DNA from: a virus
Taxonomy: Duplodnaviria > Caudoviricetes
Strand: one strand, 5' to 3'
Virus record (IMG/VR): IMGVR_UViG_3300021400_000095
DNA: 64,000 nucleotides
Part shown: positions 1 through 64,000 of the stretch, piece after piece
How the letters are laid out: each line of letters starts with the position of its first letter
How positions within the stretch are numbered: position 1 is the stretch's first letter
Notes under the pieces: model-generated
Databases searched by the model: none
Told to the model about the DNA's origin: nothing
Seen by the model: the letters and a program-made list of their open reading frames with translations, nothing else
Translations under genes and position numbers: made by a program

Positions 1-1170
1 GTCACCACCAATTTCACAATTAAGGTATGAAATATGATTTATTGCACCTTTAGCAACATTACTCTTCTTCCCACCACCAACTCTATATAATACAAATATT
101 GTTGAATTTGGCCTTGGTAAGTAACCTAATGATTCATTCTTGATGATTCTTGATATTAGAAATTGTGAAAATGGTTTTCCTTCACTAATATCAACCTCAT
201 CATTATTTGGGTCAACTCCTGCACCAAATATGATTTTTAAATACCCTCTATCTGTAAACTCAGTAATAAATTTATTTGTTACAGGCTTCCACTCACCCTT
301 TGTTACACAATATGTCACATTGTTACAATCATCATATGCATATTTATGCCCACCATTTTTTTCACCATCAGCAACTTCCCAAATCTTTTGTTGTGCCAAT
401 GACTCTACCTCAAAAAATCTTCTTGTTTTAATTGCATTGTCATTTTCACATTCAATGTCTTGTGTTGTTGAATAAAACTCACCATATGTTGGATTTATGT
501 AAAGATTTGTACCCTCTCTTACAACAATTGATTCAACATTCATTGCATCTTCATCTGGAAGAACAATTTCCATAAATGGATATATATCACTGTTGCCAAC
601 TGTCTTCTTGAATATCTTACTCTCACCTGCAACAACAACTGCTAATTTTGTTACCCTGTAACTGACAACAATGCTATTTGAATTGAGATTTGGTAAAATT
701 GTTCTATCAGGATTTCCTCTTGAATCAAATTGTTCTGAAAAATCTACATCATCCAATAATTCAAAGTTTTGTGAACCTGCTGTTAATCTTGTACCCTTTC
801 TAATAATTGGTGCATAATGATAATCAGGACCAATATCACCTTCACTATTTATTGGTAATGTGCAACTGAATTCAACTTCAGCCATTGCACCTTTAGGACC
901 AGGAACTTTAAAACCATTGTTTCTGGCCAGTGCATATAATGAGCCTGTCTCTGATGCACTATCAATATTTGTCTCTTGAAATACTCTGTCAATATGATAA
1001 CTTAAATTATCAGCAATATCTGCATTAATATCAATAAGCCATGAACCAACAGAAGCATCATTGTAATTCATTTCAAGTTCAGGATAATATTTCTTTGAAA
1101 AATCAATTAATGCTTGCTTATAATCTTGATAATTCCTGTTTAAATAAGAGATTGTCTTTTTTTCAGCCAT
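1..1170 (-). CDS. Baseplate wedge subunit (T4 gp6-like), runs off the left edge
   Basis: Not in ORF track; ATG at 1170, translates MAEKKTISYLNRNYQDYKQALIDFSKKYYPE...DASVGSWLIDINADIADNLSYHIDRVFQE, a typical gp6/baseplate-J N-terminus; directly downstream of gp25-like gene. Confidence 0.85.
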   Translation of the reverse strand, partial: MAEKKTISYLNRNYQDYKQALIDFSKKYYPELEMNYNDASVGSWLIDINADIADNLSYHIDRVFQETNIDSASETGSLYALARNNGFKVPGPKGAMAEVEFSCTLPINSEGDIGPDYHYAPIIRKGTRLTAGSQNFELLDDVDFSEQFDSRGNPDRTILPNLNSNSIVVSYRVTKLAVVVAGESKIFKKTVGNSDIYPFMEIVLPDEDAMNVESIVVREGTNLYINPTYGEFYSTTQDIECENDNAIKTRRFFEVESLAQQKIWEVADGEKNGGHKYAYDDCNNVTYCVTKGEWKPVTNKFITEFTDRGYLKIIFGAGVDPNNDEVDISEGKPFSQFLISRIIKNESLGYLPRPNSTIFVLYRVGGGKKSNVAKGAINHISYLNCEIGGD

Positions 1171-1174
1171 AATA

Positions 1175-1564
1175 TTATATCTTTATACCAACACTGGTCT
1201 TTTCAACCTTATTACCTTTTTTAACACTATAATGTACAATGATAATCATTGAATTTTCATCATTCTCATCTGATGAAAATGTAATGTCATCAAACATGAC
1301 ATTCTCAACATATTTCCCAATATCTGTTGTTAAACTTGCCTTTAACTCATTTAATGTTGTCTCATCCTTTGGTCCAAATATATACTTGATTAAATCAGTA
1401 CCAAAATCAGGATTCCTTAATCTCTGACCCTTTGGTGTGAATAAGACATGTAAAACTTGTGATTTTACACTATCTGTCATTGTATCATTTAAATCCAAAT
1501 ATACCTCATCCAAATTCTCTGAAGTAAATGGATACCTTATTCCAAATTTTTGCTGTATTGCCAT
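1175..1564 (-). CDS. Baseplate wedge subunit (gp25/GPW-like)
   Basis: GIRYPF...TPKGQRLRNPDFGTDL gp25 signature; size and context. Confidence 0.88.
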   Translation of the reverse strand: MAIQQKFGIRYPFTSENLDEVYLDLNDTMTDSVKSQVLHVLFTPKGQRLRNPDFGTDLIKYIFGPKDETTLNELKASLTTDIGKYVENVMFDDITFSSDENDENSMIIIVHYSVKKGNKVEKTSVGIKI

Positions 1565-1582
1565 TTTTATAAATCTTTAACT

Positions 1583-1591
1583 ATAAATAGT
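1583..1591 (-). promoter_or_regulatory. Putative late promoter motif ACTATTTAT
   Basis: Same 9-mer lies a short distance upstream of at least nine genes, mostly virion genes. Confidence 0.6.
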
Positions 1592-1685
1592 TAATATTGC
1601 TTTTTTCCTTATCATTAATTTAAGGTTTATTATTTATAAAATAAAGCAAAAAATTACTATATTATATACAATATAAAATGATAAT

Positions 1686-1708
1686 CCCCATGGTTTTTTC
1701 CCATGGGG
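1686..1708. terminator. Hairpin/intrinsic terminator after glycan cluster
   Basis: CCCCATGG-loop-CCATGGGG between gene 1719-3389 and gp25. Confidence 0.6.
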
Positions 1709-1718
1709 TTTTCTTATT

Positions 1719-3389
1719 TTATATTCTTGTTCCTTCAACCAAATCAAAATCAACTTCATATCTCTTATTTGGTTTGAAATTCTTTTGTACCCACAGTGTC
1801 CAAAGTCTTTCACATAAAAATGCAGGAATCATACTTTGCCATTTTAATACTTTTGTATGTATGTTTTTTCTTTCTTGCTCACTAAATCTAATATATTTTC
1901 CATTTTGGATGTTATTTATGACATGCTCATTTAATTTCCTTTCATCAGTTATGTTGTTTCTTTTTATCCACTCTGAACAACAATTAAATAAGAACTCACA
2001 ATATTCATCATATTTTTCTGCTTTCATAATAAAGCCTGATGAATAATAAAGATTTTCTCCATGCTCAATATATTCATTCCAATATCTTCTATATTCAGGA
2101 TAAAGTTCACCAACAACTTTTCTCATTGATTCAAGGTCATCAATGCAATGTGAAAATCTATAACCACCTCTAACTGTTTTTGCTGGAATATAATCATAAT
2201 TCTTTGGATAATTATATGGTTTTGCACAAATTACATCATACTTTTCAAAAATCTTATCAAAATCAGTATTTTCATCAATTCCTGTAAATCTTCTTCTGTA
2301 TTGACAATTTCCCTTATATTTTGCATCCTTTACATTTTTCCAAATCCAATATACACCAGTATTTTCTGCATACATATAATTTTCACTTGAAATATTATCA
2401 CCTGTATTGTCTTTAAGATAACATACATTTCTATGGTTTACATCTGCACCACATTGCAATGGTGTCATAATTGTATTATCAATGAAATCATAATCTTTCT
2501 TATCATAACATAACATGAAAAGTTGTACATCCTTTCTCTTTTCAAAATCAGGAGGGTCAATTGGAAGTAGGTATGACATGTCAATACCAAGTCTTTCTTT
2601 TACCATATCAACCTTTTCCTTTGTTACTTCATTATATCTGAAAAATCTTGTTTCTGTATATGATTCTCTTTTTTCATCATTAACAATATGGTCAGGAAAA
2701 CCTTTTTCCATCTTATTACAATATTCTTCAATTGTTTTTGTGCTATAATGTCTAATATATGCCAAACTATAATTATAAACAACAAATGGTGTTGTATCCT
2801 TGCAAGCATTTCCTACTGAATCACATTGTCCTACAACATTAATAACATGTGGATTTGAAGGGAATTTAACATTTGTTAAACCACCTCTTGCAATTGATTT
2901 AATATGATAGTTTTCAGGGAACTTATATGCAATTTGCTTATTATAGTCTATTGGTGTTTTGAACCTTTCAACAACAGGTTTATCTTCATAATGAACAATA
3001 CCATTATCACCATAACACATCCAATTGATTTTAATTCCATTAAATGGCTTGAAAATATCTCTTGAAAGGTATTCATCAATGGTTTTGTCTTCCACAAGTG
3101 TTAAAAACTCATCACAATCAAAAAATGCAATCCAATCATATTTATTACCATATGTTGCATAACATTCTGCATATGCATTTAACTGGCACACTGATTTATT
3201 TCTATAATCTTTAATAATAACAAAACCTGAATCAATATAATCACCAATTACATCTTCAAAATGTTCTTCACCATCATAGTTATTATCAAATAAGCATATA
3301 TTGGTAAAACCAAGATTTTTATAATATTCAACATATTCCCTAATATATTGATTTTCTTTTCTTCCAATGCAACAAAGTAATGTTTTCAT
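1719..3389 (-). CDS. Two-domain glycosyltransferase: GT2/GT92-like N-domain plus DUF4422 (GT111 galactofuranosyltransferase-like) C-domain
   Basis: WIAFFDCDEFL DxD motif; C-terminal DNTGDNIS...ENTGVYWIWKN...QYRR...FLCERL DUF4422 pattern. Confidence 0.75.
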   Translation of the reverse strand: MKTLLCCIGRKENQYIREYVEYYKNLGFTNICLFDNNYDGEEHFEDVIGDYIDSGFVIIKDYRNKSVCQLNAYAECYATYGNKYDWIAFFDCDEFLTLVEDKTIDEYLSRDIFKPFNGIKINWMCYGDNGIVHYEDKPVVERFKTPIDYNKQIAYKFPENYHIKSIARGGLTNVKFPSNPHVINVVGQCDSVGNACKDTTPFVVYNYSLAYIRHYSTKTIEEYCNKMEKGFPDHIVNDEKRESYTETRFFRYNEVTKEKVDMVKERLGIDMSYLLPIDPPDFEKRKDVQLFMLCYDKKDYDFIDNTIMTPLQCGADVNHRNVCYLKDNTGDNISSENYMYAENTGVYWIWKNVKDAKYKGNCQYRRRFTGIDENTDFDKIFEKYDVICAKPYNYPKNYDYIPAKTVRGGYRFSHCIDDLESMRKVVGELYPEYRRYWNEYIEHGENLYYSSGFIMKAEKYDEYCEFLFNCCSEWIKRNNITDERKLNEHVINNIQNGKYIRFSEQERKNIHTKVLKWQSMIPAFLCERLWTLWVQKNFKPNKRYEVDFDLVEGTRI

Positions 3390-3392
3390 ATT

Positions 3393-4202
3393 TTATTGTT
3401 TATTTTCCTCATTATTACCAAAAATATCTTCCATTTCAATCTTATCAGCTTCATAAATGCTTTCCTTTGGGAAATTATGAAGAATATATAAAGTAAACAA
3501 TCTTTCAGCCAAGAAGCCACAAATTCCTTGTTGGTATTTTACCCAATCCCAACCTATCTTTTCCTTATCAGGAGGGCATGTTGGTTGTGAGAATGTCTGA
3601 ACATGATGTTCCAATCTATCTTTGTTTGAAATAAAGAATGATTCCAAGAAAACATTGAGAACCCCAAAGACAAATTCACATGCCTTATCAAATTTTTCTT
3701 TCTCACAAATAAAACAATTTGCTGGATATAAAATATGACCATTGTTCATGTATTTGTCCCAATCATTGATATAATCAGGGAAAAATCTTTTCACAATATA
3801 TTCAATGGTAACAAAATCAACATAACTATGACACATGAAATAATTAAATTGAAGTGTTTGGTTGCCAAGGTCTGTTGGTTTGAATGTAATGATTTCTTTT
3901 TTATTCAATATACTACTGATATCCTTATATGAAAGACCAAATCTTCTTCTATAATGTTCACTACCAACATACTTGACATCTTTAACATTTTTCCATACCC
4001 AATACATTCCAGTTAACTCTCTCATACAATCATTTAATATTGAAATATTATCACCTGTATTGTCACAAGTCTCACAAATTTCAACATCCTTATGTAATTC
4101 TTTGCCAACATGTAATGGTGTATGCATTTCATCATCAACCAAGCCATACTCTGGCATCATATGAGTATAGCAATACAATTGTATTTTATTTGATTTCTTC
4201 AT
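3393..4202 (-). CDS. DUF4422-family (GT111-like) glycosyltransferase
   Basis: DNTGDNIS...ELTGMYWVWKN...HYRRRF...GFLAERL; start moved to ATG 4202 (MKKSNK) to avoid overlap with glf. Confidence 0.75.
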   Translation of the reverse strand: MKKSNKIQLYCYTHMMPEYGLVDDEMHTPLHVGKELHKDVEICETCDNTGDNISILNDCMRELTGMYWVWKNVKDVKYVGSEHYRRRFGLSYKDISSILNKKEIITFKPTDLGNQTLQFNYFMCHSYVDFVTIEYIVKRFFPDYINDWDKYMNNGHILYPANCFICEKEKFDKACEFVFGVLNVFLESFFISNKDRLEHHVQTFSQPTCPPDKEKIGWDWVKYQQGICGFLAERLFTLYILHNFPKESIYEADKIEMEDIFGNNEENKQ

Positions 4203-4209
4203 TTTTTTA

Positions 4210-5322
4210 TTAAAATTTAAAATATGATAAAGCTCTTTCAATTGTTGGTGACATATCATAATATTTATATTCTGCAAGTCTTCCACCAAAAACAACATTT
4301 GGTTTATTTATTGAAAGTTCTTTATACTGATTATATATTATATTATTTTTATCATTATTAATTGGATAAAAAGGCTCATTTTGTCCATTGAACATTTCAG
4401 GGTATTCTTTTGAAACAATTGTATGATTTATTTTCATTACATCTTCTTTATTCAAACATTCAAAATACTTATGTTCAATGCTTCTTGTATAATCAACCTC
4501 AGTTGTAGTATAATTGATGACTGCTGTTCCTTGATATGATGGTGCATCATATTGCTTGGTTTCCCATCTTAAACTTCTATAGTCAAGTTTTCCAAATTTG
4601 TAATCAAAGAACTCATCAATACAACCTGTGAATATAATATTATTTGCCAATCCATCAAAATATTCTCTATTATCAAAATAATTACAATTTACTTTAATTT
4701 CAATACCTTTTAATAAAGAATCAAATAATTTATTATATCCCCCAACTGGGATTCCTTGATATATGTCATTGAAATAGTTGTTATTCCATTCAAATCTTAA
4801 TGGAAGTCTTTTAATTATATCAAGTGGTAACTCATTACATGGTTTTCCCCATTGCTTTTCAGTATAACCTTTTATTAATTTTTTATATATTGTTGTTCCA
4901 ACCATTGATATTGCCTGTTCTTCAAGATTCTTTGGTACAATATCTCTTGGTCTCTCTGATTCTATTCTCCTTATTGCATCCTCAGGTGTTATTACATCAT
5001 TCCATATCTCATGAAATGTATTCATATTAAATGGTAAATGATATAAACCATTATTTTCACCACAAAATGCCAATGGTTGATTAATGTAATTGTTAAATGT
5101 TACAAACTGATTTAAAAAATCCCATACTTTTTTATTAGATGTGTGAAAAATATGTGGGCCATATTTATGAACATTAATGCCATCAATATTTTCACAATAG
5201 CAATTCCCACCAATATGTGGCCTTTTATCAATAACAAGACACTTATAACCAAGTTGTTTTGCCATATAAGCAAAAACACAGCCAAATAATCCTGCACCAA
5301 CAATTAAATAATCATATTGCAT
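4210..5322 (-). CDS. glf: UDP-galactopyranose mutase
   Basis: YDYLIVGAGLFG FAD-binding motif, HIGGNCY, HKYGPHIFHT, GGRLAEYKYYDM. Confidence 0.95.
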   Translation of the reverse strand: MQYDYLIVGAGLFGCVFAYMAKQLGYKCLVIDKRPHIGGNCYCENIDGINVHKYGPHIFHTSNKKVWDFLNQFVTFNNYINQPLAFCGENNGLYHLPFNMNTFHEIWNDVITPEDAIRRIESERPRDIVPKNLEEQAISMVGTTIYKKLIKGYTEKQWGKPCNELPLDIIKRLPLRFEWNNNYFNDIYQGIPVGGYNKLFDSLLKGIEIKVNCNYFDNREYFDGLANNIIFTGCIDEFFDYKFGKLDYRSLRWETKQYDAPSYQGTAVINYTTTEVDYTRSIEHKYFECLNKEDVMKINHTIVSKEYPEMFNGQNEPFYPINNDKNNIIYNQYKELSINKPNVVFGGRLAEYKYYDMSPTIERALSYFKF

Positions 5323-5326
5323 ATTA

Positions 5327-6070
5327 TTAAAATTTTAAATCACCAAAAATTGTTTCTATTTTGTCAACCTTTTTAACTTGACAACTTGTCTTATTAATAT
5401 AATATTTGTCAATTTTATTTAAAACACTTGAATTCTTTTTCTCTTTAATATATGCTGCACACCACACACCAACATATTTGAATATGTTTTTGTAATCAAA
5501 TTCATCATTATATGTTATGTTGTCCATGATTTTCAATGTCTTCAGATAATCAATATTATTTTGATTATAATATTTTAACAAATTCATGCCAAGGCAAACA
5601 TCATCAACACCTGTATAACATTTATCTTTAATGAATTCAAAAATATCCTTCATTATTTGTTTATTTATAACAATAAAATTACCTCTTAAAAATGGTGCAC
5701 CTTGACTTTCAGCATTTGATAAGAGGTATCCACCATATAATTCCCTAACATTTGGGTCTAACCTATCCAATGTGTTTAATAATAGTTCAACATTTATCCA
5801 AGTACTTGTATTTGTTCTAACAATAAAATCATACTTGTTACTATTCCTGAAAACAGATAATGCCCTTATTGTTTTGGTAAATGTATGATTTAAATCATCA
5901 TCAGATTTAAGTTTTAAAACATCACCTTCAAGTGTATCTGTGCCATCACCTCTATAAAAAATAAGGTCACATCCTTTTCTTAATCTGCTACCCCATGTTT
6001 TCCTAATGATTTCTTCCTCTTCAAGAAATCTTTCTTGATTACAAGATTGTACTAAAAATAAAACTCTCAT
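5327..6070 (-). CDS. Putative glycosyltransferase (GT31/galactosyltransferase-like)
   Basis: IRKTWG, YDFIVRTNTSTWIN, DDVCLG motifs; glycan-cluster context. Confidence 0.55.
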   Translation of the reverse strand: MRVLFLVQSCNQERFLEEEEIIRKTWGSRLRKGCDLIFYRGDGTDTLEGDVLKLKSDDDLNHTFTKTIRALSVFRNSNKYDFIVRTNTSTWINVELLLNTLDRLDPNVRELYGGYLLSNAESQGAPFLRGNFIVINKQIMKDIFEFIKDKCYTGVDDVCLGMNLLKYYNQNNIDYLKTLKIMDNITYNDEFDYKNIFKYVGVWCAAYIKEKKNSSVLNKIDKYYINKTSCQVKKVDKIETIFGDLKF

Positions 6071-6942
6071 TTTAAATCATATAATTTATTGGTACTTAGA
6101 CAAAAAACAGGTTTTTTTGTTATTCTATTTATTTCTTTGGCTTGTTGGTCATCTGATTCAACAAACAATTTATAATCACTCAACTTATTATACACATAAG
6201 ATTTATATAGCCAAGAAGGTGTTTTAGCCCTTTCTTCATATGAATCAGAATTAAACATATAAACTAGTTTTTTTGTCAGCCCAACACTATCTAAAAACTT
6301 AAAGGTTTGCTCCTTATATTTTATTAATCTATATGTACAAATTGTTATTTTGTCCAAAGTTGGTATTATTAGTGGTATTGGATTATCTATATATTTTACA
6401 TATTCATCAATTTTTCTCTCATCAGGTGGTTCAACACATAAAACACCATCTAAATCAAAAATAGTCTTTTCCATAATACCAGGATTTGAAAATAAATTCC
6501 ACTCATACAAGCATATACCAAATCCACTATTTTTAACATTTTTACTAATATCCACTAAATACAAATCTGGTTTATCAATCATACAACTTCCTTCAAGATA
6601 AACACACATAAATATGAATTCATATTCATTGTTGAATTTACTTAATTTCAATCTATTTTTCTTTGTCTCTGTCCCATTATAACAAGTATCATCTACAACT
6701 AAAATTTTTTTTGACTCAATGCTTCTTAGTTTTCTATTACCATGATTTGAACTAAAAACATCAGCACCCTTTTCAATAAATTCATTAATAGTACATAGCC
6801 CAACATTTAATTGACCTGCAATTATTGTTGCAGGTAACATTCCACTTCTTGGAACACCAATGATACCTAAAACATCTTTTGGTATTTTTGTTATATTTGT
6901 TTTAATATCTTCTATTATCTTTTGGTATGAAATATATTCCAT
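6067..6942 (-). CDS. Phosphoribosyltransferase domain fused to HAD-like phosphatase domain
   Basis: GVPRSG and ILVVDDTCYNG PRPP-binding loop; C-terminal FDLDGVL HAD motif I. Confidence 0.7.
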   Translation of the reverse strand: MEYISYQKIIEDIKTNITKIPKDVLGIIGVPRSGMLPATIIAGQLNVGLCTINEFIEKGADVFSSNHGNRKLRSIESKKILVVDDTCYNGTETKKNRLKLSKFNNEYEFIFMCVYLEGSCMIDKPDLYLVDISKNVKNSGFGICLYEWNLFSNPGIMEKTIFDLDGVLCVEPPDERKIDEYVKYIDNPIPLIIPTLDKITICTYRLIKYKEQTFKFLDSVGLTKKLVYMFNSDSYEERAKTPSWLYKSYVYNKLSDYKLFVESDDQQAKEINRITKKPVFCLSTNKLYDLK

Positions 6943-7586
6943 TTGAAATATTTACAATTAAAAATTGACTTATCTAAAACTACTATTTCTGTATTTGTTT
7001 TCCATTTAGCATAATATAAAGAGAGTTGGTCTCTGTGGCTTTTATTTTTTACCTCATTCCACCAACATTCCATTAGTTTTATGCATTCTGAATTATTGTG
7101 ATATCTGAAAATGATGGAATTTTGTGTTAAGCCATAATTTTCAGGAAACCCTTCTTTTTTATATCCTTCAACTTGTTCAAACATTGTTTCCTTTTTGTCT
7201 TTTTTAAGGTCAACAAGTGCTATTGCTTCATCATATATACAATTTCTCCCATATGGGTGTTTTCCAATAAAAACATAACCCTTGTCAGGTGTACAATTAT
7301 TTCTAACATACTCATTGATGTCTCCCTTAATATCAATATTACCATCAATGTAAATTGAAAAATCATATTCAGGTAAATATTTGTGGGGCAATATTTTGAT
7401 ACACCTGTTTTTCTTTGAATCTGACAATTCTTTTAATTCATCTGGAATATATCTTATTTCCCAAAAATCACTTTTCAAATTTTTATTATCAGTAAAACAA
7501 ATATAATCAAATCCATCTTGTTTTGGTTGGTTCTTTAATGTGTCATAATTACCTGCTATGACTGTATATATAACCTTTCTGTTCAT
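6915..7586 (-). CDS. DUF616 (TOD1/MUCI70-like) glycosyltransferase
   Basis: VIYTVIAGNYD, ICFTDN, KILPH.YLPEYD.SIYIDGN, RDQLS. Confidence 0.8.
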   Translation of the reverse strand: MNRKVIYTVIAGNYDTLKNQPKQDGFDYICFTDNKNLKSDFWEIRYIPDELKELSDSKKNRCIKILPHKYLPEYDFSIYIDGNIDIKGDINEYVRNNCTPDKGYVFIGKHPYGRNCIYDEAIALVDLKKDKKETMFEQVEGYKKEGFPENYGLTQNSIIFRYHNNSECIKLMECWWNEVKNKSHRDQLSLYYAKWKTNTEIVVLDKSIFNCKYFKWNIFHTKR

Positions 7587-7661
7587 ATTTTTTTATGGGA
7601 AAATAAACTAAAAAAACATTAAAATCAAGTATATTGGTAAAAATCATTATAACAGTTATTA

Positions 7662-8024
7662 TTACTTACTTAATATCTTGATGAATTTTTTAATTAGTAG
7701 CAATAAAGTCTTAAACAACATATCTATTGACTTGTGATTCATTATTTTAAACTTCAAATTCTGCCACCAAGTCAATGATACATAAATTTCACTGTTATTA
7801 TTGTCTTCCCTTCTTAACTGATACACATATTTATCAAACACCTTAACATTAAGGATATCAGTATATTTCACTTTATCAGTTCTATATATTTTATAAAAAA
7901 TGTTTGGCTTATTGCTAATATAATAGTTATTTCCTACTATTGTAATGGTGTTATTTTTATCATAAACTTCTAATGTACCATCTGCTTCATTAAGTTCATT
8001 AGCTTTTAAGTTCTTTATCTTCAT
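7662..8024 (-). CDS. Hypothetical protein
   Basis: Intact ORF packed in the operon. Confidence 0.55.
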   Translation of the reverse strand: MKIKNLKANELNEADGTLEVYDKNNTITIVGNNYYISNKPNIFYKIYRTDKVKYTDILNVKVFDKYVYQLRREDNNNSEIYVSLTWWQNLKFKIMNHKSIDMLFKTLLLLIKKFIKILSK

Positions 8025-8883
8025 TTTTTTTTAAATTTAACAAATCACCAATTATTTTATTATATTTACTATCCTTATAATGGAAAAATCCAGCGCCAGG
8101 TGTAAAGGTAAGTTCACCAATATATAATTTACCATTAATTTCATAAAAATCTACTCTTACAAACTTAAAATCTTCTGACAAAACCTTAGCATATTCAATC
8201 ATTTTATCAAATGTATTTGGTTTTTGTGGATTATATGGCATTGGTCTAAAATCAGTTCTTTCAATGTCAAGTTTATTGAAATTCATGTCATAATAGTTCA
8301 TCCTACCATGACCATTTCCATCATTAATTGTCATGAATTTTGGTTCACCATTAAAACACCAGAATTTATAATCAAACAATGATTGTTTTTGTCCTTCATC
8401 ACTCATATATTTTTCAACAAAAATTCTATGAGGAATATCATGATAATGCATTTCATAACCAACATGGAATGCAAAATCATCATTCATGAAACCTTGTAAT
8501 CTTCTTTCAGCATCAGCAATATTTAATGTGCTTTTATCTTTTACAATAATATTCATTCCTGAACCATGATTACATTTGATAACAAACTGATTTGGTAATT
8601 CATCCCAATTTATATCACTAACCTTATCATAAATTTTAATGATTGGAATGCATAAATCAACACCTAATTTCTCCTTACAATAATCATGCAATTGGATTTT
8701 ATCAGCACATCTTGTTTTCAATGGTGTTGAATCATAGATTTTCATCCAATTAAGTTTATCTTGAATTGTTACAGGATTATCAAGATTATAGCCAATGCCA
8801 TGCCTTTTACATAAATTAATTAATGGCTCTTTATATTTCTCAAATCTTTTATCCAATTCTTCCATATTACCAGTTACTATCAA
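7999..8883 (-). CDS. TupA-like ATP-grasp protein (polysaccharide amidation/ligation)
   Basis: LPNQFVIKCNHGSG, DYKFWCFNGEP, FVRVDFY, GELTFTPGAG. Confidence 0.85.
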   Translation of the reverse strand: MIVTGNMEELDKRFEKYKEPLINLCKRHGIGYNLDNPVTIQDKLNWMKIYDSTPLKTRCADKIQLHDYCKEKLGVDLCIPIIKIYDKVSDINWDELPNQFVIKCNHGSGMNIIVKDKSTLNIADAERRLQGFMNDDFAFHVGYEMHYHDIPHRIFVEKYMSDEGQKQSLFDYKFWCFNGEPKFMTINDGNGHGRMNYYDMNFNKLDIERTDFRPMPYNPQKPNTFDKMIEYAKVLSEDFKFVRVDFYEINGKLYIGELTFTPGAGFFHYKDSKYNKIIGDLLNLKKNEDKELKS

Positions 8884-11566
8884 ATCTTGGGTCTAACATT
8901 TTTGGCTGTTTATCAACCATTATTTTTTTAACCCTAACCTTATTTTCTTCTTTCTTTGTTTCAAATGTTTTTTCAGCCTTTGTTGGTTCTTCTTTGACCT
9001 TGTTCTTATTTAGTAATTCTAATGCCTTTATCTTTGCTTTATTTTGATTTTCAACCAAAATATTCAATGTTGTATTAACAGGTGCTTGTATTGTTTCACC
9101 TGAAACATCAATGTCATTATAAACATCTTCATTCCCATTATATACATAGTTGAAATCAGTATCAATTTCATAATAACTGTTTGTAACCTTTTTTATTACA
9201 GCTTCTTCCTTCTTTTTTAATTTCATTGTTACTTTATTAACAAAATTAAGGTTTTCTTTTCTTATCTTTGACCTGAAATTTGTTTCCTTTGCAACAGTTA
9301 AATTAGTGTCATGAATTCTTCTCCTAAATAATACTTTGTCTATTTTAATATGTTTAAAGAATTTTTTAGCCCTTACTTCAAAATCAGTATCAGCTGAACA
9401 TGACCAAGGTCTATAACCACCAAGATAATCAAACACATCATGTTTAACATACATTTGTCCACCTGCAATTTGTGTTGATGTACTTCTTCCAAAATTTTTC
9501 ATTTTGAAATTAACAAATTCAGCATCACCTTTTTTCTTCATAATGGTTTCAACCATTTCAGTTAACATAACATCATCAGCATCAAATCTAATTAAACCAT
9601 CATATTTTGCAAGTGACATTATTGTATTGGTTGTAATATATGTTCCCTTGTTTTCTGTCATCATAAAAACCCTTAGGTTTCTATATTTGTTCATTATTGT
9701 TTTTACATATTCAAGTGTTTCCTCACAACCATCAATTCCAAGTAGAACTTCCCAATTGTCATGTGTATTAAACCATGTTTGTGCCTCAACAGAATCAAGA
9801 CATTCTTTAATGAATTTTTTTGCTTTATATGCTGTTATACAAATGGAAACACCACTTTCATAAACATTATCCATTTTAATTTTGTTTGTCTTTACTATTT
9901 TATTGTTTTTAACCCTATCCAAAAATTCTTTATTTGTTATTTCAATTGGACAAGCATCAACCAAAGCATTTAAATCAACCATTGTTCCTGCCTTATATTC
10001 TTGCAAATATTTCATTGCTTTTTCAATGGTGAAAAACTTATCCATTCTTACAGCATTCTTTCTATCCAAACCTATTGATTGGAAAAAATCATGGAATTTT
10101 ATATCAAATATGCTTTTTAATGTAATATCAACCCATAAATTTGGCACACCATATGCTTCTGCCATAATAATTCCATGCAATGATTCAGATATAATATAAT
10201 CACAAGAAAGTATTTCATCAATTACTTGTAACCAATTATTATATCCTGACATCTTTATTACATGAACACCCTTTTTCTGAGAAAAACTTTTTACAATAGA
10301 ACTATTAAGTGATGACCAATGTGGAATTAGCCCAATCTTATATTTCTTTTCAACAATTGGATAGTAATAATATGGTAATAATAAACTTGGGTCACCATAT
10401 ATCTCAGGACATTCAACACCCTTCTTTAATAAAAACTCCCTTGTTAATGGACCTCTTACTGCACATACTTTCTTTGGTGATTCATCCCATTTGGTATTTG
10501 GTATCTGTATTCCAGCACCCCAAACAATACTGTTACTGTCTATAAAATTACTGGTTAAAATTGACCCTATAAATGTATAATTCTCCCTGCCAGTTTCTTG
10601 ATAATCCACTAACTTCTTATCAAATAACTTTTGTAAGAAATAAAAATTAATATCATCCCCCCAATTATTATTAATCAACTTACCATTATTGTCTCTCTGT
10701 GTCCATGTATTAATTTTTATTAAATTTTCATTACAATCAATTTTTAATCTTTTTGCAAAATCAACCTTTTCTTTTGTCTTTTTGTTATACATAAAAAAAT
10801 AATCAAGGTCAAGCCTATCTTTCCCACCATTCATGTACTTTGTTGGCCATAACCTCACCATCTTCTTGGTAACATATTCTTCTATTGTCTTAAATCTATA
10901 GTGATTCAACCAAGCACCCTTCCAAACAGGAATGTCACCTAATTTAATTGCAATCCTACATTTTTCACCAACAGCATTGACAGTTGGTACATTTAAAAAA
11001 CAATGTGGACTTGTAACCTTAAAATCCTTGATGTTTGTTCTGATTATTGATTTTGCTTGTGTGTTTGATATTATTGCATGTTGAACAGGTATCTTATTTT
11101 CAAGACAAAATTTCTTATCAAAAACTTCAGTGAACCTCTTTATTGAATAATTGTTGTTTTTTACAGTTAATAAATTATTATCTGTAAATTGCTTCCAACC
11201 AATCCTGATACACTTTGCTTTGTCAAATTTCTTTTGACTGACAAACTCTTGAATTGTTTCTGATTTGTCAAATTCTATAAATTCATCAATATCCCAAAAA
11301 CAAATCCAATCATATTTATCTTTATATTCATGATAACAAGAATTATAAGAAGGAATTTGTGCTAATTCCTTCCCTCTCCAATTTTTTAATATTACATAAC
11401 CTGATTCAATATAATCCCCAATAACATCTTCAAAATGTTCACCATCAATGTCATTGTTGTCATATAAAACAATATTATTGAAACCAAGATTCTTGTGGTA
11501 TTCTACCCATTCTCTAATGTAATTGTTCTCTAATTTCCCAATACCACATAATAAAACCCTGCACAT
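8867..11566 (-). CDS. Multidomain glycan enzyme: GT2/GT92-like + polysaccharide pyruvyltransferase-like + GT2
   Basis: CFWDIDEF; NWGDD...AVRGPLT...GDPSLL...SESLHG; C-terminal ITAYKA...RFDADD; likely start ATG 11566. Confidence 0.8.
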   Translation of the reverse strand: MCRVLLCGIGKLENNYIREWVEYHKNLGFNNIVLYDNNDIDGEHFEDVIGDYIESGYVILKNWRGKELAQIPSYNSCYHEYKDKYDWICFWDIDEFIEFDKSETIQEFVSQKKFDKAKCIRIGWKQFTDNNLLTVKNNNYSIKRFTEVFDKKFCLENKIPVQHAIISNTQAKSIIRTNIKDFKVTSPHCFLNVPTVNAVGEKCRIAIKLGDIPVWKGAWLNHYRFKTIEEYVTKKMVRLWPTKYMNGGKDRLDLDYFFMYNKKTKEKVDFAKRLKIDCNENLIKINTWTQRDNNGKLINNNWGDDINFYFLQKLFDKKLVDYQETGRENYTFIGSILTSNFIDSNSIVWGAGIQIPNTKWDESPKKVCAVRGPLTREFLLKKGVECPEIYGDPSLLLPYYYYPIVEKKYKIGLIPHWSSLNSSIVKSFSQKKGVHVIKMSGYNNWLQVIDEILSCDYIISESLHGIIMAEAYGVPNLWVDITLKSIFDIKFHDFFQSIGLDRKNAVRMDKFFTIEKAMKYLQEYKAGTMVDLNALVDACPIEITNKEFLDRVKNNKIVKTNKIKMDNVYESGVSICITAYKAKKFIKECLDSVEAQTWFNTHDNWEVLLGIDGCEETLEYVKTIMNKYRNLRVFMMTENKGTYITTNTIMSLAKYDGLIRFDADDVMLTEMVETIMKKKGDAEFVNFKMKNFGRSTSTQIAGGQMYVKHDVFDYLGGYRPWSCSADTDFEVRAKKFFKHIKIDKVLFRRRIHDTNLTVAKETNFRSKIRKENLNFVNKVTMKLKKKEEAVIKKVTNSYYEIDTDFNYVYNGNEDVYNDIDVSGETIQAPVNTTLNILVENQNKAKIKALELLNKNKVKEEPTKAEKTFETKKEENKVRVKKIMVDKQPKMLDPRFDSNW

Positions 11567-11605
11567 GCAAATATATTTTATTATAAATATATTTAAAATA
11601 TAACA

Positions 11606-11631
11606 AAAAACAAGCATAACTGCTTGTTTTT
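11606..11631 (-). terminator. Intrinsic terminator after nrdG
   Basis: AAAAACAAGCA-TAAC-TGCTTGTTTTT. Confidence 0.65.
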
Positions 11632-12152: not shown

Positions 12153-13098
12153 TATTAATATTGTTTAGCAAAAACTCATGAAAAAATAAAGAACCATTCC
12201 TTGAAATATCCTTTAGAGATTCATTTGATATTGTCTTCATCTTAATCATTTCCTTATTAATATTAACTTTTAATCCATATCCAACAAATGCTTTATTAAT
12301 AAAATCAATGTCCTTGTTAGACAAATTATTGCACATATTATTAATTATTAAAAATGTCTGATATGATTCAGTTTTAATTAAACTTTCTTTATATAACTTT
12401 AACAAATAATCATATTTTGCTTCATTGGAAAACCTTTTTATTTTGTTCTTAATAATTTCTAATCTACTTTCAGGAAAAAGTTCCAACAATTGAGTATATG
12501 TGGATGACACTATTGATTGCCTTTCATGATAATAGCAAGCATACATTGCATATGCAAAATTCCTTATCAATTCATTTCTTTCATTCTCAATAATTGTTTT
12601 TATCCCACCATACCAAGATACAATATCAATATTTTTATCATTTGAAATCCTTTTGTTAAAAATGTTTCCATGCATTAATTCATGATTTACAATAGAAACA
12701 ATTTTATTAAAGATTTGTTTACTATCAAATGATAACCTATCAAACTGACTTAAATAAAGTGTGAACTCCAAATCTGTCAATATAATATCATCACCAATAA
12801 TATTACCTCTTGGCATTGTACTGGCATAGGTTTTCCCAACCAAATCTTTAGTTATCACTAAAACCAAATGTACAGGTATTTTTTCACCATCAATCTCAAT
12901 TTCAAAATCTCTTTTATGTTCATTGTTGTTTACCATATCAACAAATTCTTTAGTAATAGACTTTGCAACTTCTGGCTGTTTATTAAATGAACCAAGAGCC
13001 TCATTAACAAAAGAAATCTCCTTTTCAAAAACTTCCTTTATTAATATGTTTTTTATTTTGTTTTCATTAAAAAATGGTGGTACAATATAACTATTCAT
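12145..13098 (-). CDS. Zincin-like (HExxH) protein, paralog family member 1, inserted between nrdD and nrdG
   Basis: IVNHELMH plus downstream MY....HE motif shared with genes at 44241, 45080, 58876. Confidence 0.6.
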   Translation of the reverse strand: MNSYIVPPFFNENKIKNILIKEVFEKEISFVNEALGSFNKQPEVAKSITKEFVDMVNNNEHKRDFEIEIDGEKIPVHLVLVITKDLVGKTYASTMPRGNIIGDDIILTDLEFTLYLSQFDRLSFDSKQIFNKIVSIVNHELMHGNIFNKRISNDKNIDIVSWYGGIKTIIENERNELIRNFAYAMYACYYHERQSIVSSTYTQLLELFPESRLEIIKNKIKRFSNEAKYDYLLKLYKESLIKTESYQTFLIINNMCNNLSNKDIDFINKAFVGYGLKVNINKEMIKMKTISNESLKDISRNGSLFFHEFLLNNINNG

Positions 13099-15463
13099 TG
13101 TCAATATTGGTTATATCTGTGTATACTCTTGTCTTTTGCTCAATCTGTCTTCCATCTGACCAATTCTTAACCTTTGTTAAATAACCTATAATTCTATCCC
13201 AAAGGCTGACATTAGTACTTCCACAATGAGGGCATTTTTCAAATGGTTGTTTTGCAATAAAACCACAATTTTCACATTGGCAATTTGGAATGTTAAATGT
13301 TAGATATGAACATCCATTTTCAGCAGCATATTTTAGTATTTTCTCATATTGTGCTTTTGATAAGTGTGCATCAAGATTTAAATGTGCTGCACTACCACCA
13401 TCCAAATAATCACCAATATAGTTTTTGCCCATTAATCTAATCTTTTCAAAAACACTGAGATTTTCATTTGGTTTATAAACATAACTTGCATACAAATTAG
13501 TATCATTTGGAACCCAGTAACCATCTTCTTTATCCCAATTATAATTCTTTACTGCAAGTGATTCAGCAGGAACTTGTTCAGTATTAAAAGTAATTTTGTG
13601 CTTTTCATCTGTAACTTTATGTAAAGTATTTTGTTCCTTAATGTTACCAAAAATGTTTTGGCAGAATTTTGCATAAGCATCATTATCTGTACACTTTAAA
13701 CCAAGGAATTCTGCTGCTTGATTCAAACCATTTAAACCAATTGTTAAATACTGTTTGTTAAGGTCAATAAAACCAGCTTTATAAACAGGCAATAGGTTGG
13801 AATCATACATGTCCCATAATAGTTCATTATATGCAGTATGATATTTATAAACTCTTTCAAGAATTTTGTTTAAATATGATTTCAAACTACTATAATCTGA
13901 ATCAGAACCACTAAAAACAAAATCATTGTTCTTTTCCTTCCTTGAATTGAACCAATCCTGAGTAATTCTATTAAGATTTAATGTTATAACAGACTTAGAA
14001 CCTGTCTGTACACCAATATTACCATTAGTAAAGTTAAATTCTTTGGTTTGTATCTTGTTTTTTAATCTGCAACATGAACTGAGGCTGTCAACAGAATCAC
14101 TTATATAAGTAAAGAAACTATGACCTCTTGCATATTCCTCACAGACAAAATTAAACATTTCCTCATCTTCAAATTTTCCATCTTTATAAAGAAGTGTAAA
14201 AGATTCAACAGGGAATGTTAACAAACACTTAAGTCTTTCATTGTTAAACCACATCATGAACTCTTTTTCAACCCACTTAAGGCTTTCCCAATCAGGTTGT
14301 GTTCCATCAGGAAAATAGAAATTACCAAACATACCATCAAAGAATGGCTTATCAAAATAAGAAAAATTCACGAAGGCGGATTGATAACCCCTTGCTGCTG
14401 CTGGTTGAGAAATGGTATAAACAATTTGCTGCCAATATTGATGTATTTGTCCCTTTATTGTTCTTGTCCCATCACCAAATTTAAGTATATAGTTAGGGTC
14501 TTCTTTAATGTGTTCACAATAATCCTTTAATTCATCTTCAGTCAATGGTCTTTCACTTTCATAAACAAGTTCATCTCTTAATTTATTTAACTCATCACTA
14601 CCAAAATCATGTTCTGCAAGTTCTTTTACATTATTAGTCCAATAGTGTGATTCATTAAGTAACTTTCTTAGTTTATAACCAATTTTATAAAATGAATTTG
14701 ATTCTTTATAAAAATCATCACCCCATTCTTTCTTACAGAAATAGGTAAAATATAATAGAGATTCAGAAGTAGCAACAGCACCTGCAAATTGTGAAGAAAT
14801 TGCAAAAATAAGATTGCAATACATTCCACAATATGAATCAATATTCTTTGGTTCAGCAGAAAGACCACCAATGTTCTTAAGACCATTTGTTAAAAATGGA
14901 TACATTGTTAAAGAAACACAATATGGTGCAATTGCTCCAGCAAAAGAAGATTCATCATGTTTGTATATAATATGATTTTCCAAATCTTTTACATAATTCT
15001 TAGCATTAAAAGTAGGGTACAAATCTTTCAATTTACCCATTATCATTTTTCTGCTAATTTGAAGATTCTCTTCTTTGTGTATTTCAGCATTTAATACACC
15101 AATATTTTTGTTTGCAACATTTGAATTATCATCAATAGTTGCATTTGCTGTATTGGTTGCTTTCTTGTAATTATTAATAAAATTAATTTTTCTTTCTACA
15201 AAATTTTCAATCTCTTCTTTCTTGTTTTTTACTGACCTATATGCATTTAAAAGTCTATCATCTCTTTCACTAAACCTCTCTTCTAATTGCTTTCTAATTG
15301 AGGAACATAAAATGCCATCATATATATACAAACTATCAACAATTTCCTTTGCACATTCTGCATTACATTCAACACCAGCAGTATTAAAAACCTTTTTAAT
15401 AATATTTATCAACTTCCTTCTACTAAATTCCTCATAGGAGCCATCACTTTTTCTAACATCCAT
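13091..15463 (-). CDS. nrdD: Class III anaerobic ribonucleoside-triphosphate reductase with ATP cone
   Basis: N-terminal ATP cone VRKSDG; SSCCRL; CxxC..CxxC; RIIGYL glycyl-radical motif. Confidence 0.95.
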   Translation of the reverse strand: MDVRKSDGSYEEFSRRKLINIIKKVFNTAGVECNAECAKEIVDSLYIYDGILCSSIRKQLEERFSERDDRLLNAYRSVKNKKEEIENFVERKINFINNYKKATNTANATIDDNSNVANKNIGVLNAEIHKEENLQISRKMIMGKLKDLYPTFNAKNYVKDLENHIIYKHDESSFAGAIAPYCVSLTMYPFLTNGLKNIGGLSAEPKNIDSYCGMYCNLIFAISSQFAGAVATSESLLYFTYFCKKEWGDDFYKESNSFYKIGYKLRKLLNESHYWTNNVKELAEHDFGSDELNKLRDELVYESERPLTEDELKDYCEHIKEDPNYILKFGDGTRTIKGQIHQYWQQIVYTISQPAAARGYQSAFVNFSYFDKPFFDGMFGNFYFPDGTQPDWESLKWVEKEFMMWFNNERLKCLLTFPVESFTLLYKDGKFEDEEMFNFVCEEYARGHSFFTYISDSVDSLSSCCRLKNKIQTKEFNFTNGNIGVQTGSKSVITLNLNRITQDWFNSRKEKNNDFVFSGSDSDYSSLKSYLNKILERVYKYHTAYNELLWDMYDSNLLPVYKAGFIDLNKQYLTIGLNGLNQAAEFLGLKCTDNDAYAKFCQNIFGNIKEQNTLHKVTDEKHKITFNTEQVPAESLAVKNYNWDKEDGYWVPNDTNLYASYVYKPNENLSVFEKIRLMGKNYIGDYLDGGSAAHLNLDAHLSKAQYEKILKYAAENGCSYLTFNIPNCQCENCGFIAKQPFEKCPHCGSTNVSLWDRIIGYLTKVKNWSDGRQIEQKTRVYTDITNIDNE

Positions 15464-17954: not shown

Positions 17955-19148
17955 TTATTTTTTTATTTCTTTTTTATATCTTGCTATCTCTTTATTAGTA
18001 AGAGATTTAAATGGCTCAAAAAATCCTGAAAATTTATTTTCATCCAATAATTCTGTTAAATCATCTTCAACAATATATTGATATATGTTATTAAATGACC
18101 TTCCTTCAGGGTCTTGTACATTATACATGGTTGATTCTAGTTCTGCTTTTGCATAGTCACTGATGAGTGGATTTGATAAATCTATGATTTTTCTATTGAT
18201 TTCATAGAAATCACCATCATAATTCCCTTTTGTTACACCATTTACAATGTTTTCATGCCATTTTAATGGCTTTTTCTTTTGTGAAAGTCTTTCATCAACC
18301 TTTTCCTTAGCCCTTTGTCTAATTTCATTAATAGTAACAGGTCTTTTTTCAATTTCAGGTATTAGTTCATGTAATCTGTTCTGGCTGACACCTTCAATGT
18401 TCTTTATATTATCACTTGTATCACCACAAATAATTTTCTCAATCACAACATTTTCAACTGGAACACCTCTAATTTCTTGAATGTTATCCTTTGTTATAAA
18501 TTTCTTTATCATATGGTCATAAACACAAACAGTATCAGAAATTAATTGTGTAAGGTCATGGTCTGTTGACATTATGACAATTTTTTCTTCAGGTTTTTTA
18601 TTCTTTACATAATATGCAATATAGTCATCACCTTCAGTTGATTCCTCATCATCAAAAAACCATCTTATATATAATTCATTAAAATACTTTAAAAGCAAAT
18701 CCCTTTCCCTTGAAAAGTTTTCATCAATGAATTTTTGCAAATCTGATTTTTCCTTCTTTTTATTTTTTCCAAATAGATAATTTTGCATTGATTTTAACTT
18801 CTCTTCATATGCTTTCCCATATTCTGACAAATTTTCAAAATTCTCTATGAGTGAATAATTCTTATCCTCTCTATTTGCTTTATATCCATTATAAATCTTA
18901 TATCTTTTCAATCCAGAACAATGCCCATCAAAAAAAACATACACATAATCAAAACTTTTCTTCTGTAACATCATTCTAAGTTGCAAAAGAAATTGAAAAA
19001 CACCACCATAATGTTCACCTTTTGTATTAACTTTATCATCTTTCATTGAAAGTCTTAATAAATTATTGCCATCAACTAATAAAGTATAAATCTTGGTTTC
19101 TGTGATGTTATGTGCTTCCTTAACTATTTTCTTAATTGGTTGTGCCAT
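17955..19148 (-). CDS. 5'-3' exonuclease / T4 RNase H-like (FEN family)
   Basis: LLVDGNNL, YKANR, EGDD, STDHDL, GDTSDNI; starts MAQPI. Confidence 0.9.
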   Translation of the reverse strand: MAQPIKKIVKEAHNITETKIYTLLVDGNNLLRLSMKDDKVNTKGEHYGGVFQFLLQLRMMLQKKSFDYVYVFFDGHCSGLKRYKIYNGYKANREDKNYSLIENFENLSEYGKAYEEKLKSMQNYLFGKNKKKEKSDLQKFIDENFSRERDLLLKYFNELYIRWFFDDEESTEGDDYIAYYVKNKKPEEKIVIMSTDHDLTQLISDTVCVYDHMIKKFITKDNIQEIRGVPVENVVIEKIICGDTSDNIKNIEGVSQNRLHELIPEIEKRPVTINEIRQRAKEKVDERLSQKKKPLKWHENIVNGVTKGNYDGDFYEINRKIIDLSNPLISDYAKAELESTMYNVQDPEGRSFNNIYQYIVEDDLTELLDENKFSGFFEPFKSLTNKEIARYKKEIKK

Positions 19149-19163
19149 ATTCAATTATTTTTA

Positions 19164-22379: not shown

Positions 22380-22397
22380 ATTATTAAAAATTTTATT

Positions 22398-56932: not shown

Positions 56933-57865
56933 ATGAAGGGAATTATATTAGCTGGAGGTGCAGGAACAAGACTTCACCCAATTACAAAAGGAATCAGCAA
57001 GCAGCTACTTCCAATTTATGATAAACCTATGATTTATTACCCTCTGTCAATCCTTATGCTTGCTGATATAAAAGATATTCTTATCATTACAACACCTGAA
57101 GAACAATCAATGTTCAAGAGATTGCTTGGTAATGGTTCAGATTTTGGCATTAATCTCCAATATGCTGTTCAGGAAAAACCAAATGGTTTGGCTGAAGCAT
57201 TTATTATTGGTGAAGAATTCATTGGTGATGATGCTGTTTGTTTAATATTGGGTGATAATATTTTCCATGGTTCAAATATAAGTGTAAAGTTGAATTTGGC
57301 AAGAACCATTGTTGAAGATACTAAAAATGCAAGAGCAGTTGTCTTTGGTTATCAAGTATCTGACCCTGAAAGATATGGTGTTGCTGAAGTGACTAAGACT
57401 GATGTTGAATTTCCAAACAATTTATATTGTGTAAAATCACTTGAAGAAAAACCAAAGAATCCAAAATCAAATATTGCAGTAACAGGATTATACTTCTATC
57501 CAAATTCTGTTGTTAATGTAGCAAAAAATATTAAACCATCAGCAAGAGGTGAACTTGAAATTACTGAAGTAAATAATGTATATAATAATATGATTGCAAA
57601 TGATGGTGGAACAATGCTTGACCTTATTATGTTTGATAGGGGTTATGCTTGGCTTGACACTGGAACTTTTGATAGTCTATCAGATGCATCAAATTACATT
57701 GAAACAATTCAGAAAAGACAAGGTTTAAAAGTTGCTTGTTTGGAAGAAATTGCATATAATAAAGGATGGATTAGTAAACAACAACTTTTGGAAGCAGGTG
57801 AAAAATTAAAGAAAAATGATTATGGAAAATATCTATTGAATCTTATAAATAAAGCCATAGACTAA
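56933..57865 (+). CDS. rfbA: Glucose-1-phosphate thymidylyltransferase
   Basis: [49 protein letters not shown]. Confidence 0.96.
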
Positions 57866-57876: not shown

Positions 57877-57884
57877 TTAGTTTA

Positions 57885-62359: not shown

Positions 62360-62377
62360 ATTTTAAGTATTTTTCTT

Positions 62378-62417: not shown

Positions 62418-62447
62418 TAAAAAATAAATATATAAAACAATATTGCT

Positions 62448-62705
62448 ATGTGTAAAGAAAACTTTGATAACCTTGAATTTAAGCCTTTTATAGAAACACC
62501 AGATGATGTTGCAGGATATGATGAGTTAGAAATAAATGAAGTTGCTTGTAATAGTGTTGGAATTAAATTGTTTGAATTTGACTTGAATGATGATATTGCA
62601 GATATTGCACTTGATGAAGATAAAGTTAAAGAAGTGTTCCCTGACTTTATAATCAAAGAAGGAAAAGGTTATGTACTTGGTAATGAAAATGGCTTGTACA
62701 TTTAA
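62448..62705 (+). CDS. Small acidic hypothetical protein
   Basis: ATG after TAnnTTTG element. Confidence 0.6.
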   Translation: MCKENFDNLEFKPFIETPDDVAGYDELEINEVACNSVGIKLFEFDLNDDIADIALDEDKVKEVFPDFIIKEGKGYVLGNENGLYI

Positions 62706-62755
62706 TTTTGGGAACTATATACAAGTTGTCCACAATAGGAATAGATAGACAGATT

Positions 62756-62932
62756 ATGAAGAAGATAAAAGTTGTATTGTCTGAAGGTGTATATGTTATA
62801 AAGCCAAATGATGACAACAAAGATAGTGTTGTGCTTGAATGTGACACAAGAAAAGAATGGACAGATTATTTAACAAGCCTCCCAAACCCACCAAGACACA
62901 TTGTTGTAAGTACATTGGTTCAAAATCTTTAA
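62756..62932 (+). CDS. Small hypothetical protein
   Basis: ATG 62756 (MKKIKVV); followed by hairpins. Confidence 0.45.
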   Translation: MKKIKVVLSEGVYVIKPNDDNKDSVVLECDTRKEWTDYLTSLPNPPRHIVVSTLVQNL

Positions 62933-63005
62933 TAAAGATTGGACAACAAGTATATAATTTCCTTAATTTTTATTATGTTTCACAAACATAATGTTTGAGA
63001 TGAAT

Positions 63006-63033
63006 AAAACACACATTGTAGTATGTGTGTTTT
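63006..63033 (+). terminator. Intrinsic terminator
   Basis: AAAACACACAT-loop-ATGTGTGTTTT followed by T-run. Confidence 0.65.
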
Positions 63034-63102
63034 GTTTTTTTATAGGTTTTTTTGTATTTTTGTAAAAAATGATGTCTAATGATAGACTTTAATTGAATTG
63101 TT

Positions 63103-64000
63103 ATGGCTGAAAATTTGAACAAAGAAATTACAGATGAAGTAATTGAAACATTTTTGAATGGGCATGACCCACAAGAAAGAATTGTAAATATTGAATATTC
63201 CTATAGAGATAATTTCATGAAAGTATATTATAGGAATGAAAATGACCAAAAATGTATGTCCATGGAATCATTTTACCCATTTGTTTGGGCAAGACTTGAT
63301 ACCTGTGTTTCATTGTGTGGTGGTGATAGAAAAAAATTGAAACTCCTTATGCAACAATGTGGTATTGAAGTAAAATCACTTGAATATACAACAAAAGATG
63401 GAGTTGAAATACCTGAAATGAAAGATGGTTATAGATTCATGTTCAAGGCAAGAAAACCAATGTCTTATACTGAATTCCTTGACTTCTTTAAGAAATGTGA
63501 TTTTCCAATATATTCAGATAAAAAAATAAATAACATTGAAAGACCTTTCCTGTGTGTTACACCTCAGGAACAATTTCTTATTTCCACAGGTAAAAGATTT
63601 TTTAAAGGATATGATGATTATAATCAAATCCTTAGACTTACCTTTGACTTGGAAACTGAAGGTCTTGACCCAACAAGGCATAGAATTAAACTCATTGGTA
63701 TCAAACTTAATAGACCTGTCATAATAAGAGGCAAACTATATGATAATTTTGAAAGAATATATAGACTTGAAGGAAATACTGAACAAGAAAAAAATGCATC
63801 TGAATTAAAAATTATAGATACATTCCTTAGAATTATATATACATTTAAGCCTGATGTTATTACTGCACATAATGGTGAAAACTTTGACTGGTCTTTCATC
63901 ATTGAAAGATGTAATCAACTTGGTACAGATATTGATACTGTTTCAAAACCATACTTTAAAGGAAAAACAATATATAAAAACCCAAAGGAATCAATTCTTA
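63103..64000 (+). CDS. Family B DNA polymerase, N-terminal 3'-5' exonuclease part (runs off the right edge)
   Basis: Not in ORF track; ATG 63103 open to the end; LTFDLETEGL (ExoI), PDVITAHNGENFDW (ExoII); TATTTTTG at 63055. Confidence 0.85.
   Translation, partial: MAENLNKEITDEVIETFLNGHDPQERIVNIEYSYRDNFMKVYYRNENDQKCMSMESFYPFVWARLDTCVSLCGGDRKKLKLLMQQCGIEVKSLEYTTKDGVEIPEMKDGYRFMFKARKPMSYTEFLDFFKKCDFPIYSDKKINNIERPFLCVTPQEQFLISTGKRFFKGYDDYNQILRLTFDLETEGLDPTRHRIKLIGIKLNRPVIIRGKLYDNFERIYRLEGNTEQEKNASELKIIDTFLRIIYTFKPDVITAHNGENFDWSFIIERCNQLGTDIDTVSKPYFKGKTIYKNPKESIL

Follow-up and report, generated by a model that had tools for sequence, protein, structure and literature searches.

The locus and the depth of its CG loss

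The 64,000-nucleotide stretch of viral DNA held as IMG/VR record IMGVR_UViG_3300021400_000095 (at its full length, the window) is part of the genome of an uncultured T4-like jumbo myovirus, and it is almost devoid of the dinucleotide CG. The gene set includes a T4-like baseplate, tube, sheath, tape measure and portal, a family B polymerase, a helicase, RecA, NrdD and a glycosyltransferase block. The tail sheath protein was found as an exact match on a 352,732-bp ENA metagenome contig (ERZ28612966, SHIW14-1 scaffold_15), on which window position p corresponds to contig position 124,968 - p; we take the sample name SHIW14-1 to denote the work of Shi et al. 2014 on the sheep rumen. The portion of the contig that was read amounts to 100.8 kb of 353 kb (29%). 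There is no close cultured relative (sheath identity ≤27% over the full length). The host is probably a rumen member of the Bacteroidales, as indicated by NrdD, by RfbA and by a TonB-dependent receptor of sister phages. NrdD was nearest to its counterparts in Lak and crAss-like phages, and the best RfbA matches were in Prevotellaceae and other Bacteroidales, at only 60-62% identity. CRISPR spacers from 301 genomes gave no match to 20 kb of phage sequence in a weak test that scored two candidates per genome.

L191:4078-7374 and L193:4418-7714, sister phages: TonB-dependent (SusC-like) receptor, 1,098 aa, between recA and the 5'-3' exonuclease gene

CG occurred 9 times in the window against 1,260 expected from base composition (observed/expected ratio, rho, 0.007), and the count of nine and all nine coordinates given by an earlier sequence-only reading were exact. 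GC was normal (rho 0.96) and TG/CA was raised (rho 1.39, compared with 1.24 in a sister region), an excess that is also predicted under selection. Arginine was encoded by CGN in 0 of 729 cases, in agreement with the earlier impression that arginine is coded by AGA and AGG, whereas sister phages use CGN for 12-30%; only two NCG codons were present in all window genes. CG across codon junctions was seen 7 times versus 392 ± 15 in synonymous-codon shuffles, the control that bears out the claim of a near-total absence. Non-coding DNA contained 0 CG versus 23 expected, and all ten NCGN contexts were emptied. Codon bias is thus no explanation for the loss, since all frames and the non-coding DNA are hit. 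Over a contiguous 100,766 bp stitched from contig positions 24,202-124,967, 15 CG were found versus 2,053 expected; extrapolation to the whole 353-kb genome gives ∼50 CG, or survival of ∼0.7% of sites. This extrapolated figure lies below 89, the lowest CpG count in a survey of 7,011 complete phage genomes, most of which are far smaller (bioRxiv 10.1101/2025.05.15.652987), and the genome provides a natural example of the nearly complete surrender of four arginine and four NCG codons.

The depletion extended to host-like genes, as had been noted: glf (4210-5322) and rfbA (56933-57865) each contained zero CG. Strain-specific inserts were equally CG-free, for example an IS607-like element interrupting glf (0 versus 33). 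Homologues of this element lie mostly on large phage-sized contigs, and those of its TnpB point to no host. Within the glycosyltransferase block, gene content differed among strains L310, L311 and L312.

1719-11617: glycosyltransferase block with glf, pyruvyltransferase and TupA-like ATP-grasp genes; adjoins the baseplate genes
L312:3820-5890, one strain: IS607-like element interrupting glf, with a serine resolvase and a 461-aa TnpB-like gene

The CG sites that survive in the window are as follows.

8094-8095: one CG (GCGC), codon junction in the TupA-like ATP-grasp gene
14371-14378: two CG, 6 bp apart, codon junctions in nrdD at the QSAFVN motif
24548-24549: one CG, Pro CCG codon in a 334-aa gene (gp32-like in relatives); also in strain L190
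46083-46084: one CG, 3' end of the tail sheath gene; also in strains L342 and L343
50154-50166: two CG, 11 bp apart, 179-aa gene; also in strain L343
53350-53351: one CG (CCGG), SNF2 helicase gene; also in strain L348
61720-61721: one CG (CCGG), 547-aa gene

Residual sites were mostly private to a strain (19 alignments differing versus 3 shared). The 46 distinct survivors occupied 8 of the 10 NCGN contexts, with a marked bias in their flanks: CCGG was found 6 times versus 0.7-1.4 expected, CCG/CGG made up 27 of the 46, C was enriched at -1 and -2, and ACGT plus TCGA together occurred once versus 9.8 expected. Single strains carried, at consensus, clusters with as many as four CG within 20 bp; these lay at conserved motifs, where tracts of dense synonymous change include several changes that create CG:

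L195:10618-10636: helicase Walker A
L352:17376-17393: polymerase motif B
Window 14371-14378: NrdD QSAFVN

The nrdD site carries three CG in strain L190, and one CG there is common to the window and the CG-rich relative L152; in the Walker A cluster of L195, two CG have been lost in L156 through C>T and G>A. We suspect that these tracts are possibly targets of homing endonucleases, and intein-sized helicases are present in relatives. Three further CG of L195 fall within the probable variable repeat of a diversity-generating retroelement, near the 3' end of its target. The spacing of survivors suggested no rule for a two-site enzyme, with distances of 6-16 bp, 160-470 bp and several kilobases.

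L195:15218-18576, second CG-free lineage (described below): diversity-generating retroelement with Lcl_C-domain target, accessory gene and reverse transcriptase

CG loss among relatives and strains

Among 299 family loci, some of them overlapping, 295 had rho ≥ 0.37 and 4 had rho < 0.05, with none between. The median was 0.72, or 0.57 for loci of less than 31% GC, and the minimum among the latter was 0.37, so the CG content of the window is not that of its AT-rich relatives. Sister phages with GC equal to or lower than that of the window had rho 0.37-0.64; G003, a complete sister genome of 363 kb whose helicase is 77% identical, holds 6,547 CG (rho 0.64). CG loss is a discrete, lineage-specific switch. 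A second CG-free lineage, comprising L156, L090, L195 and probably L441 (rho 0.02-0.04), stood apart from the window in a helicase tree and in a six-gene tree, and a single CG-free clade was rejected (AU p = 0.018, 5,000 replicates). These trees make two independent origins probable, with a single origin and later reversal as a possible alternative. One helicase homologue, P0009, is a 2.3-kb contig labeled Methanobrevibacter sp. at NCBI and is probably a phage fragment binned by composition.

CG-free and CG-rich sisters are mosaic in their recA and nrdD alleles. The window RecA (21177-22379) is 86-87% identical to that of L193 and L092 and 46% identical to that of G003; its NrdD (13091-15463) is 84-87% identical to that of L155 and L193 and 42% identical to that of G003, while the NrdD of L195 is 90% identical to that of G003. 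The largely syntenic CG-free and CG-rich sisters constitute a natural experiment from which the causal gene could be pinpointed by whole-genome comparison.

We compared the window with 11 strain loci that are ∼2% divergent from it, using three CG-rich clades as controls. Synonymous T>C changes occurred at 3 of 3127 sites before G but at 135 of 4506 sites elsewhere (Fisher p 3e-27), and synonymous A>G changes at 3 of 1758 sites after C but at 129 of 4144 elsewhere (Fisher p 2e-16). Synonymous changes that create CG are therefore ∼25-fold too rare among strains, and none of the three control clades showed such a deficit. C>T was equally frequent before A, C and T. Double changes between TG and CA were found at 7 of 10,314 sites, within the range of other double transitions, where a rough expectation under hypermutation is 16-21 (P 0.013-0.0005). 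Because CG-creating changes are too rare and TG/CA doublets are not in excess, ongoing selection is favored over decay of methylcytosine. CG is kept out by ongoing purifying selection acting at the DNA level, and CG alleles are lost whatever the reading frame, from non-coding DNA and from mobile inserts as well. Each site carries a modest cost: a simple model gave 2Ne*s of ∼4-5 from the strain deficit and from the standing level alike. From the sequence-only reading, selection against CG is upheld by the strain test and by the breadth of the loss; of the causes it had proposed, pure mutational decay fares poorly for want of a TG/CA doublet excess, as judged by a rough test.

Several window proteins share a further feature. 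A leader of the form MAQP-hydrophobic-basic opens four unrelated proteins: the exonuclease, RecA, a 259-aa protein and a DUF559-like nuclease (17955-19154, 21177-23177 and 40871-41347).

Candidate agents of the selection

CG is not the only word that these phages avoid. GATC was absent from the window (0 versus 159 expected), occurred 22 times in 1.52 Mb of family loci (L086-L197) and was absent from seven genomes in which ∼1,850 were expected; survival like that of CG would have left 13.5 (P 1e-6). AGCT, CTAG, CCWGG, CTGCAG, CTCAAG and GGTACC were likewise avoided in the window and in these loci. The non-CG words avoided by CG-free and by CG-rich sisters were largely the same (GATC, AGCT, CTAG and CTGCAG), and the two CG-free lineages had no special signature of non-CG avoidance in common. 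These common avoided words, together with the recA and nrdD exchanges, suggest that the sisters draw on a common pool of hosts and that CG was lost in only some of the lineages. A CG-rich sister already avoids ACGT, TCGA, CCGG, CGCG, CGWCG, GRCGYC, RGCGCY and ATCGAT.

We infer that an enzyme recognizing CG as a 2-bp site, and less active on CCG-flanked sites, exerts the pressure. Its cost would be small at each site and large when summed over thousands of sites. We assign a probability of about 0.5 to the reading in which this enzyme is the phage's own, either a nuclease for host DNA or a methyltransferase; encoded by the lineage itself, it would exert its pressure in every infection. The leading form, held tentatively, is a CG-preferring nuclease that would break down the CG-rich DNA of the host (and of competitors) and spare phage DNA in which its site is missing; such a nuclease may be at work, and it was absent from the causes listed by the sequence-only reading. 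The other form, which we regard as somewhat less probable still, is a CG methyltransferase whose marks would carry a cost, whether from modification-dependent restriction, from 3mC lesions or from C-to-T changes that prove lethal. A phage gene is placed slightly ahead of a host defense because it would supply pressure in every infection and because only two lineages are CG-free among sisters that apparently share hosts. The odds among mechanisms are soft.

Several results weigh against this reading. No C5 methyltransferase was detected in the 100.8 kb read, with profiles that recovered positive controls. In the regions compared, there was no gene private to both CG-free lineages and no candidate for a CG-specific nuclease. 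The recA and nrdD exchanges are old (82-84% DNA identity), so that present-day sharing of hosts is no more than a possibility. The doublet test is built on few events and a rough model. To our knowledge, no phage nuclease has been described that distinguishes its own DNA from that of the host by a missing dinucleotide.

A DNMT3-like C5 methyltransferase does occur in the family, in a CG-rich member. It was rejected as the cause; its own phage has rho 0.8-0.9, and its best 120 homologues include none on the contigs of the window phage. When 36 family records were searched with PF00145, few contained a C5 methyltransferase and the complete sister G003 contained none, and a second, degenerate C5 fragment was seen in L084. 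A 331-aa gene present only in the window's lineage (L351:4103-5098, between dUTPase-like and IMPDH-like genes) was suggested to encode a DEDD exonuclease (0.89, lead only).

L082:904-3247 (G001), CG-rich family member: DNMT3-like C5 methyltransferase, beside an SPPY-type amino-methyltransferase and rfbC

Pressure could instead come from the host. Here a defense would read CG in incoming DNA, and two phage lineages specialized on hosts so equipped would have purged the site; the defense could be an undescribed restriction-like or sensing system of low efficiency per site, from which a mark such as m4C or some structural cue would protect host DNA, or else the host could methylate CG and also possess a Type IV enzyme. 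We consider this possible, though less probable than an enzyme of the phage. It predicts the same signature of selection, two probably independent origins fit convergence on one host, the absence of GATC shows how strongly these phages answer host restriction, and the lack of a phage methyltransferase in the portion read fits as well. Enzymes that cut methylated CG are known (the MspJI family, PsuGI and Mrr; PMC12707154), but no bacterial defense is known to target CpG preferentially (PMC11282364). None of 401 Bacteroidales genomes looked CG-free (lowest TTACGAA/control ratio ∼0.2), the five most CG-depleted of them had no C5 methyltransferase above the cut-off, and the weak spacer test gave no match. 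The two CG-free lineages, moreover, lack the common non-CG signature mentioned above. An efficient 2-bp restriction enzyme would offer no gradient along which 6,000 sites could dwindle to 50, and it would leave no room for four CG within 20 bp. CG restriction as the sequence-only reading had proposed it thus fits poorly if a classical enzyme is meant, with ∼50 sites per genome persisting and GATC at zero; CG-targeted methylation or a weak CG-reading nuclease is the part of its list that is still viable.

If a methyltransferase or deaminase simply turned CG into TG/CA, with no cost attached to the site itself, the raised TG/CA would follow, and of 127 codon junctions that read C-G in sisters, 115 do read T-G in the window. 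With M.SssI, C-to-T changes at CG become more frequent, and the enzyme is able to deaminate C to U (bioRxiv 10.64898/2026.01.24.701492; PMC3804486). Such pure decay would, however, require a 55-120-fold mutation rate, and the lack of a doublet excess and of a methyltransferase in the 100.8 kb counts against it. For methylated vertebrate DNA the CG mutation rate is raised roughly 10-fold, far below what is needed. CG is not depleted in Bacteroides phages that carry DNMT3-like enzymes (rho 0.85-1.35). Of 76 aligned codons that are CGN in sisters, 46 are AGR in the window, a change at conserved arginines that deamination cannot produce; this argument does not settle the matter, since at a 100-fold mutation rate load alone could also purge CGN codons from a large population. 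On balance we judge pure decay improbable. A clash between CG and a base modification of the phage, such as bulky groups on the adjacent cytosines of a CG pair, is more doubtful again: the genome is rich in glycosyltransferases and sugar-nucleotide enzymes, but CG-rich sisters have similar blocks, GATC, AGCT, CTGCAG, GGTACC and CTCAAG are still avoided as unmodified DNA would require, and no modification gene was recognized near the polymerase or elsewhere in the part read. The continued avoidance of ordinary restriction sites likewise disfavors this option as the sequence-only reading had raised it. Least probable of all, and already largely refuted, is a sum of ordinary effects, in which AT bias and a preference for AGR codons would combine with the avoidance of numerous Type II sites that contain CG. 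The eight such sites already avoided by a sister and the near absence of ACGT and TCGA among survivors point that way, but all ten contexts are emptied, junction and non-coding CG are gone too, and sisters of equal or lower GC retain far higher rho with no intermediates. Phosphorothioate systems were also rejected as a cause, as those reported include no C-G dinucleotide (PMC12914056).

We consider the chances even that an undescribed enzyme, whether a phage nuclease or a CG-reading bacterial defense, separates self from non-self DNA by bare CG. The causal gene would encode a new CG-specific DNA enzyme or represent a new kind of defense.

Comparison with known systems

CpG suppression has been explained in animals and their viruses, and no bacterial or phage drivers are known beyond rare Mollicute methyltransferases (PMC11282364). 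Our literature search found no report of a CG-free phage. The suppression of CpG in vertebrate viruses under ZAP and TLR9 is similar in that a sensor or effector reading CG imposes the selection. A phage of gut bacteria, however, does not replicate in animal cells, and CG-rich sisters inhabit the same habitat. A CG-reading defense in bacteria, if it exists, would be the prokaryotic counterpart of this kind of surveillance.

T4 endonuclease II (DenA; PMC2764454) offers a model of such a phage enzyme: it initiates degradation of host DNA by nicking at short sites and leaves phage DNA alone. T4 shields its own DNA with hydroxymethylcytosine, whereas the shield proposed here is the missing site. 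How the unmodified DNA of T5 escapes that phage's own host-degrading activity is an open question (bioRxiv 10.64898/2026.04.02.716235).

Loss of CpG under M.MpeI of Mycoplasma penetrans or M.SssI (PMC11282364, PMC11879396), like CpG decay in vertebrates, resembles the present case in that all contexts are lost and TG/CA is in excess. The loss in the window is far deeper, the lineage shows neither the TG/CA doublet excess nor, in the part read, a methyltransferase, and CGN would be expected to persist at conserved arginines, where the window has none. M.SssI also prefers C at -2 (PMC11879396), yet C at this position is enriched among the survivors of the window's lineage.

Avoidance of Type II restriction sites in virulent phages, as summarized in PMC12707154 from Rusinov et al. 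2018, shares the selective loss of palindromic words from coding and non-coding DNA alike, and the genome of the window shows this classical pattern for GATC, AGCT and CTGCAG. Type II avoidance concerns words of 4-8 bp and spares other contexts, whereas here a 2-bp word is lost in every flank; ∼0.7% of CG survives, unlike GATC at zero; and the other sites are avoided family-wide, whereas CG is lost in only two lineages. We know of no cognate enzyme for the 2-bp word CG. In its working the loss of CG is akin to restriction-site avoidance, and it has features of CpG loss driven by methylation, but it fails defining tests of both.

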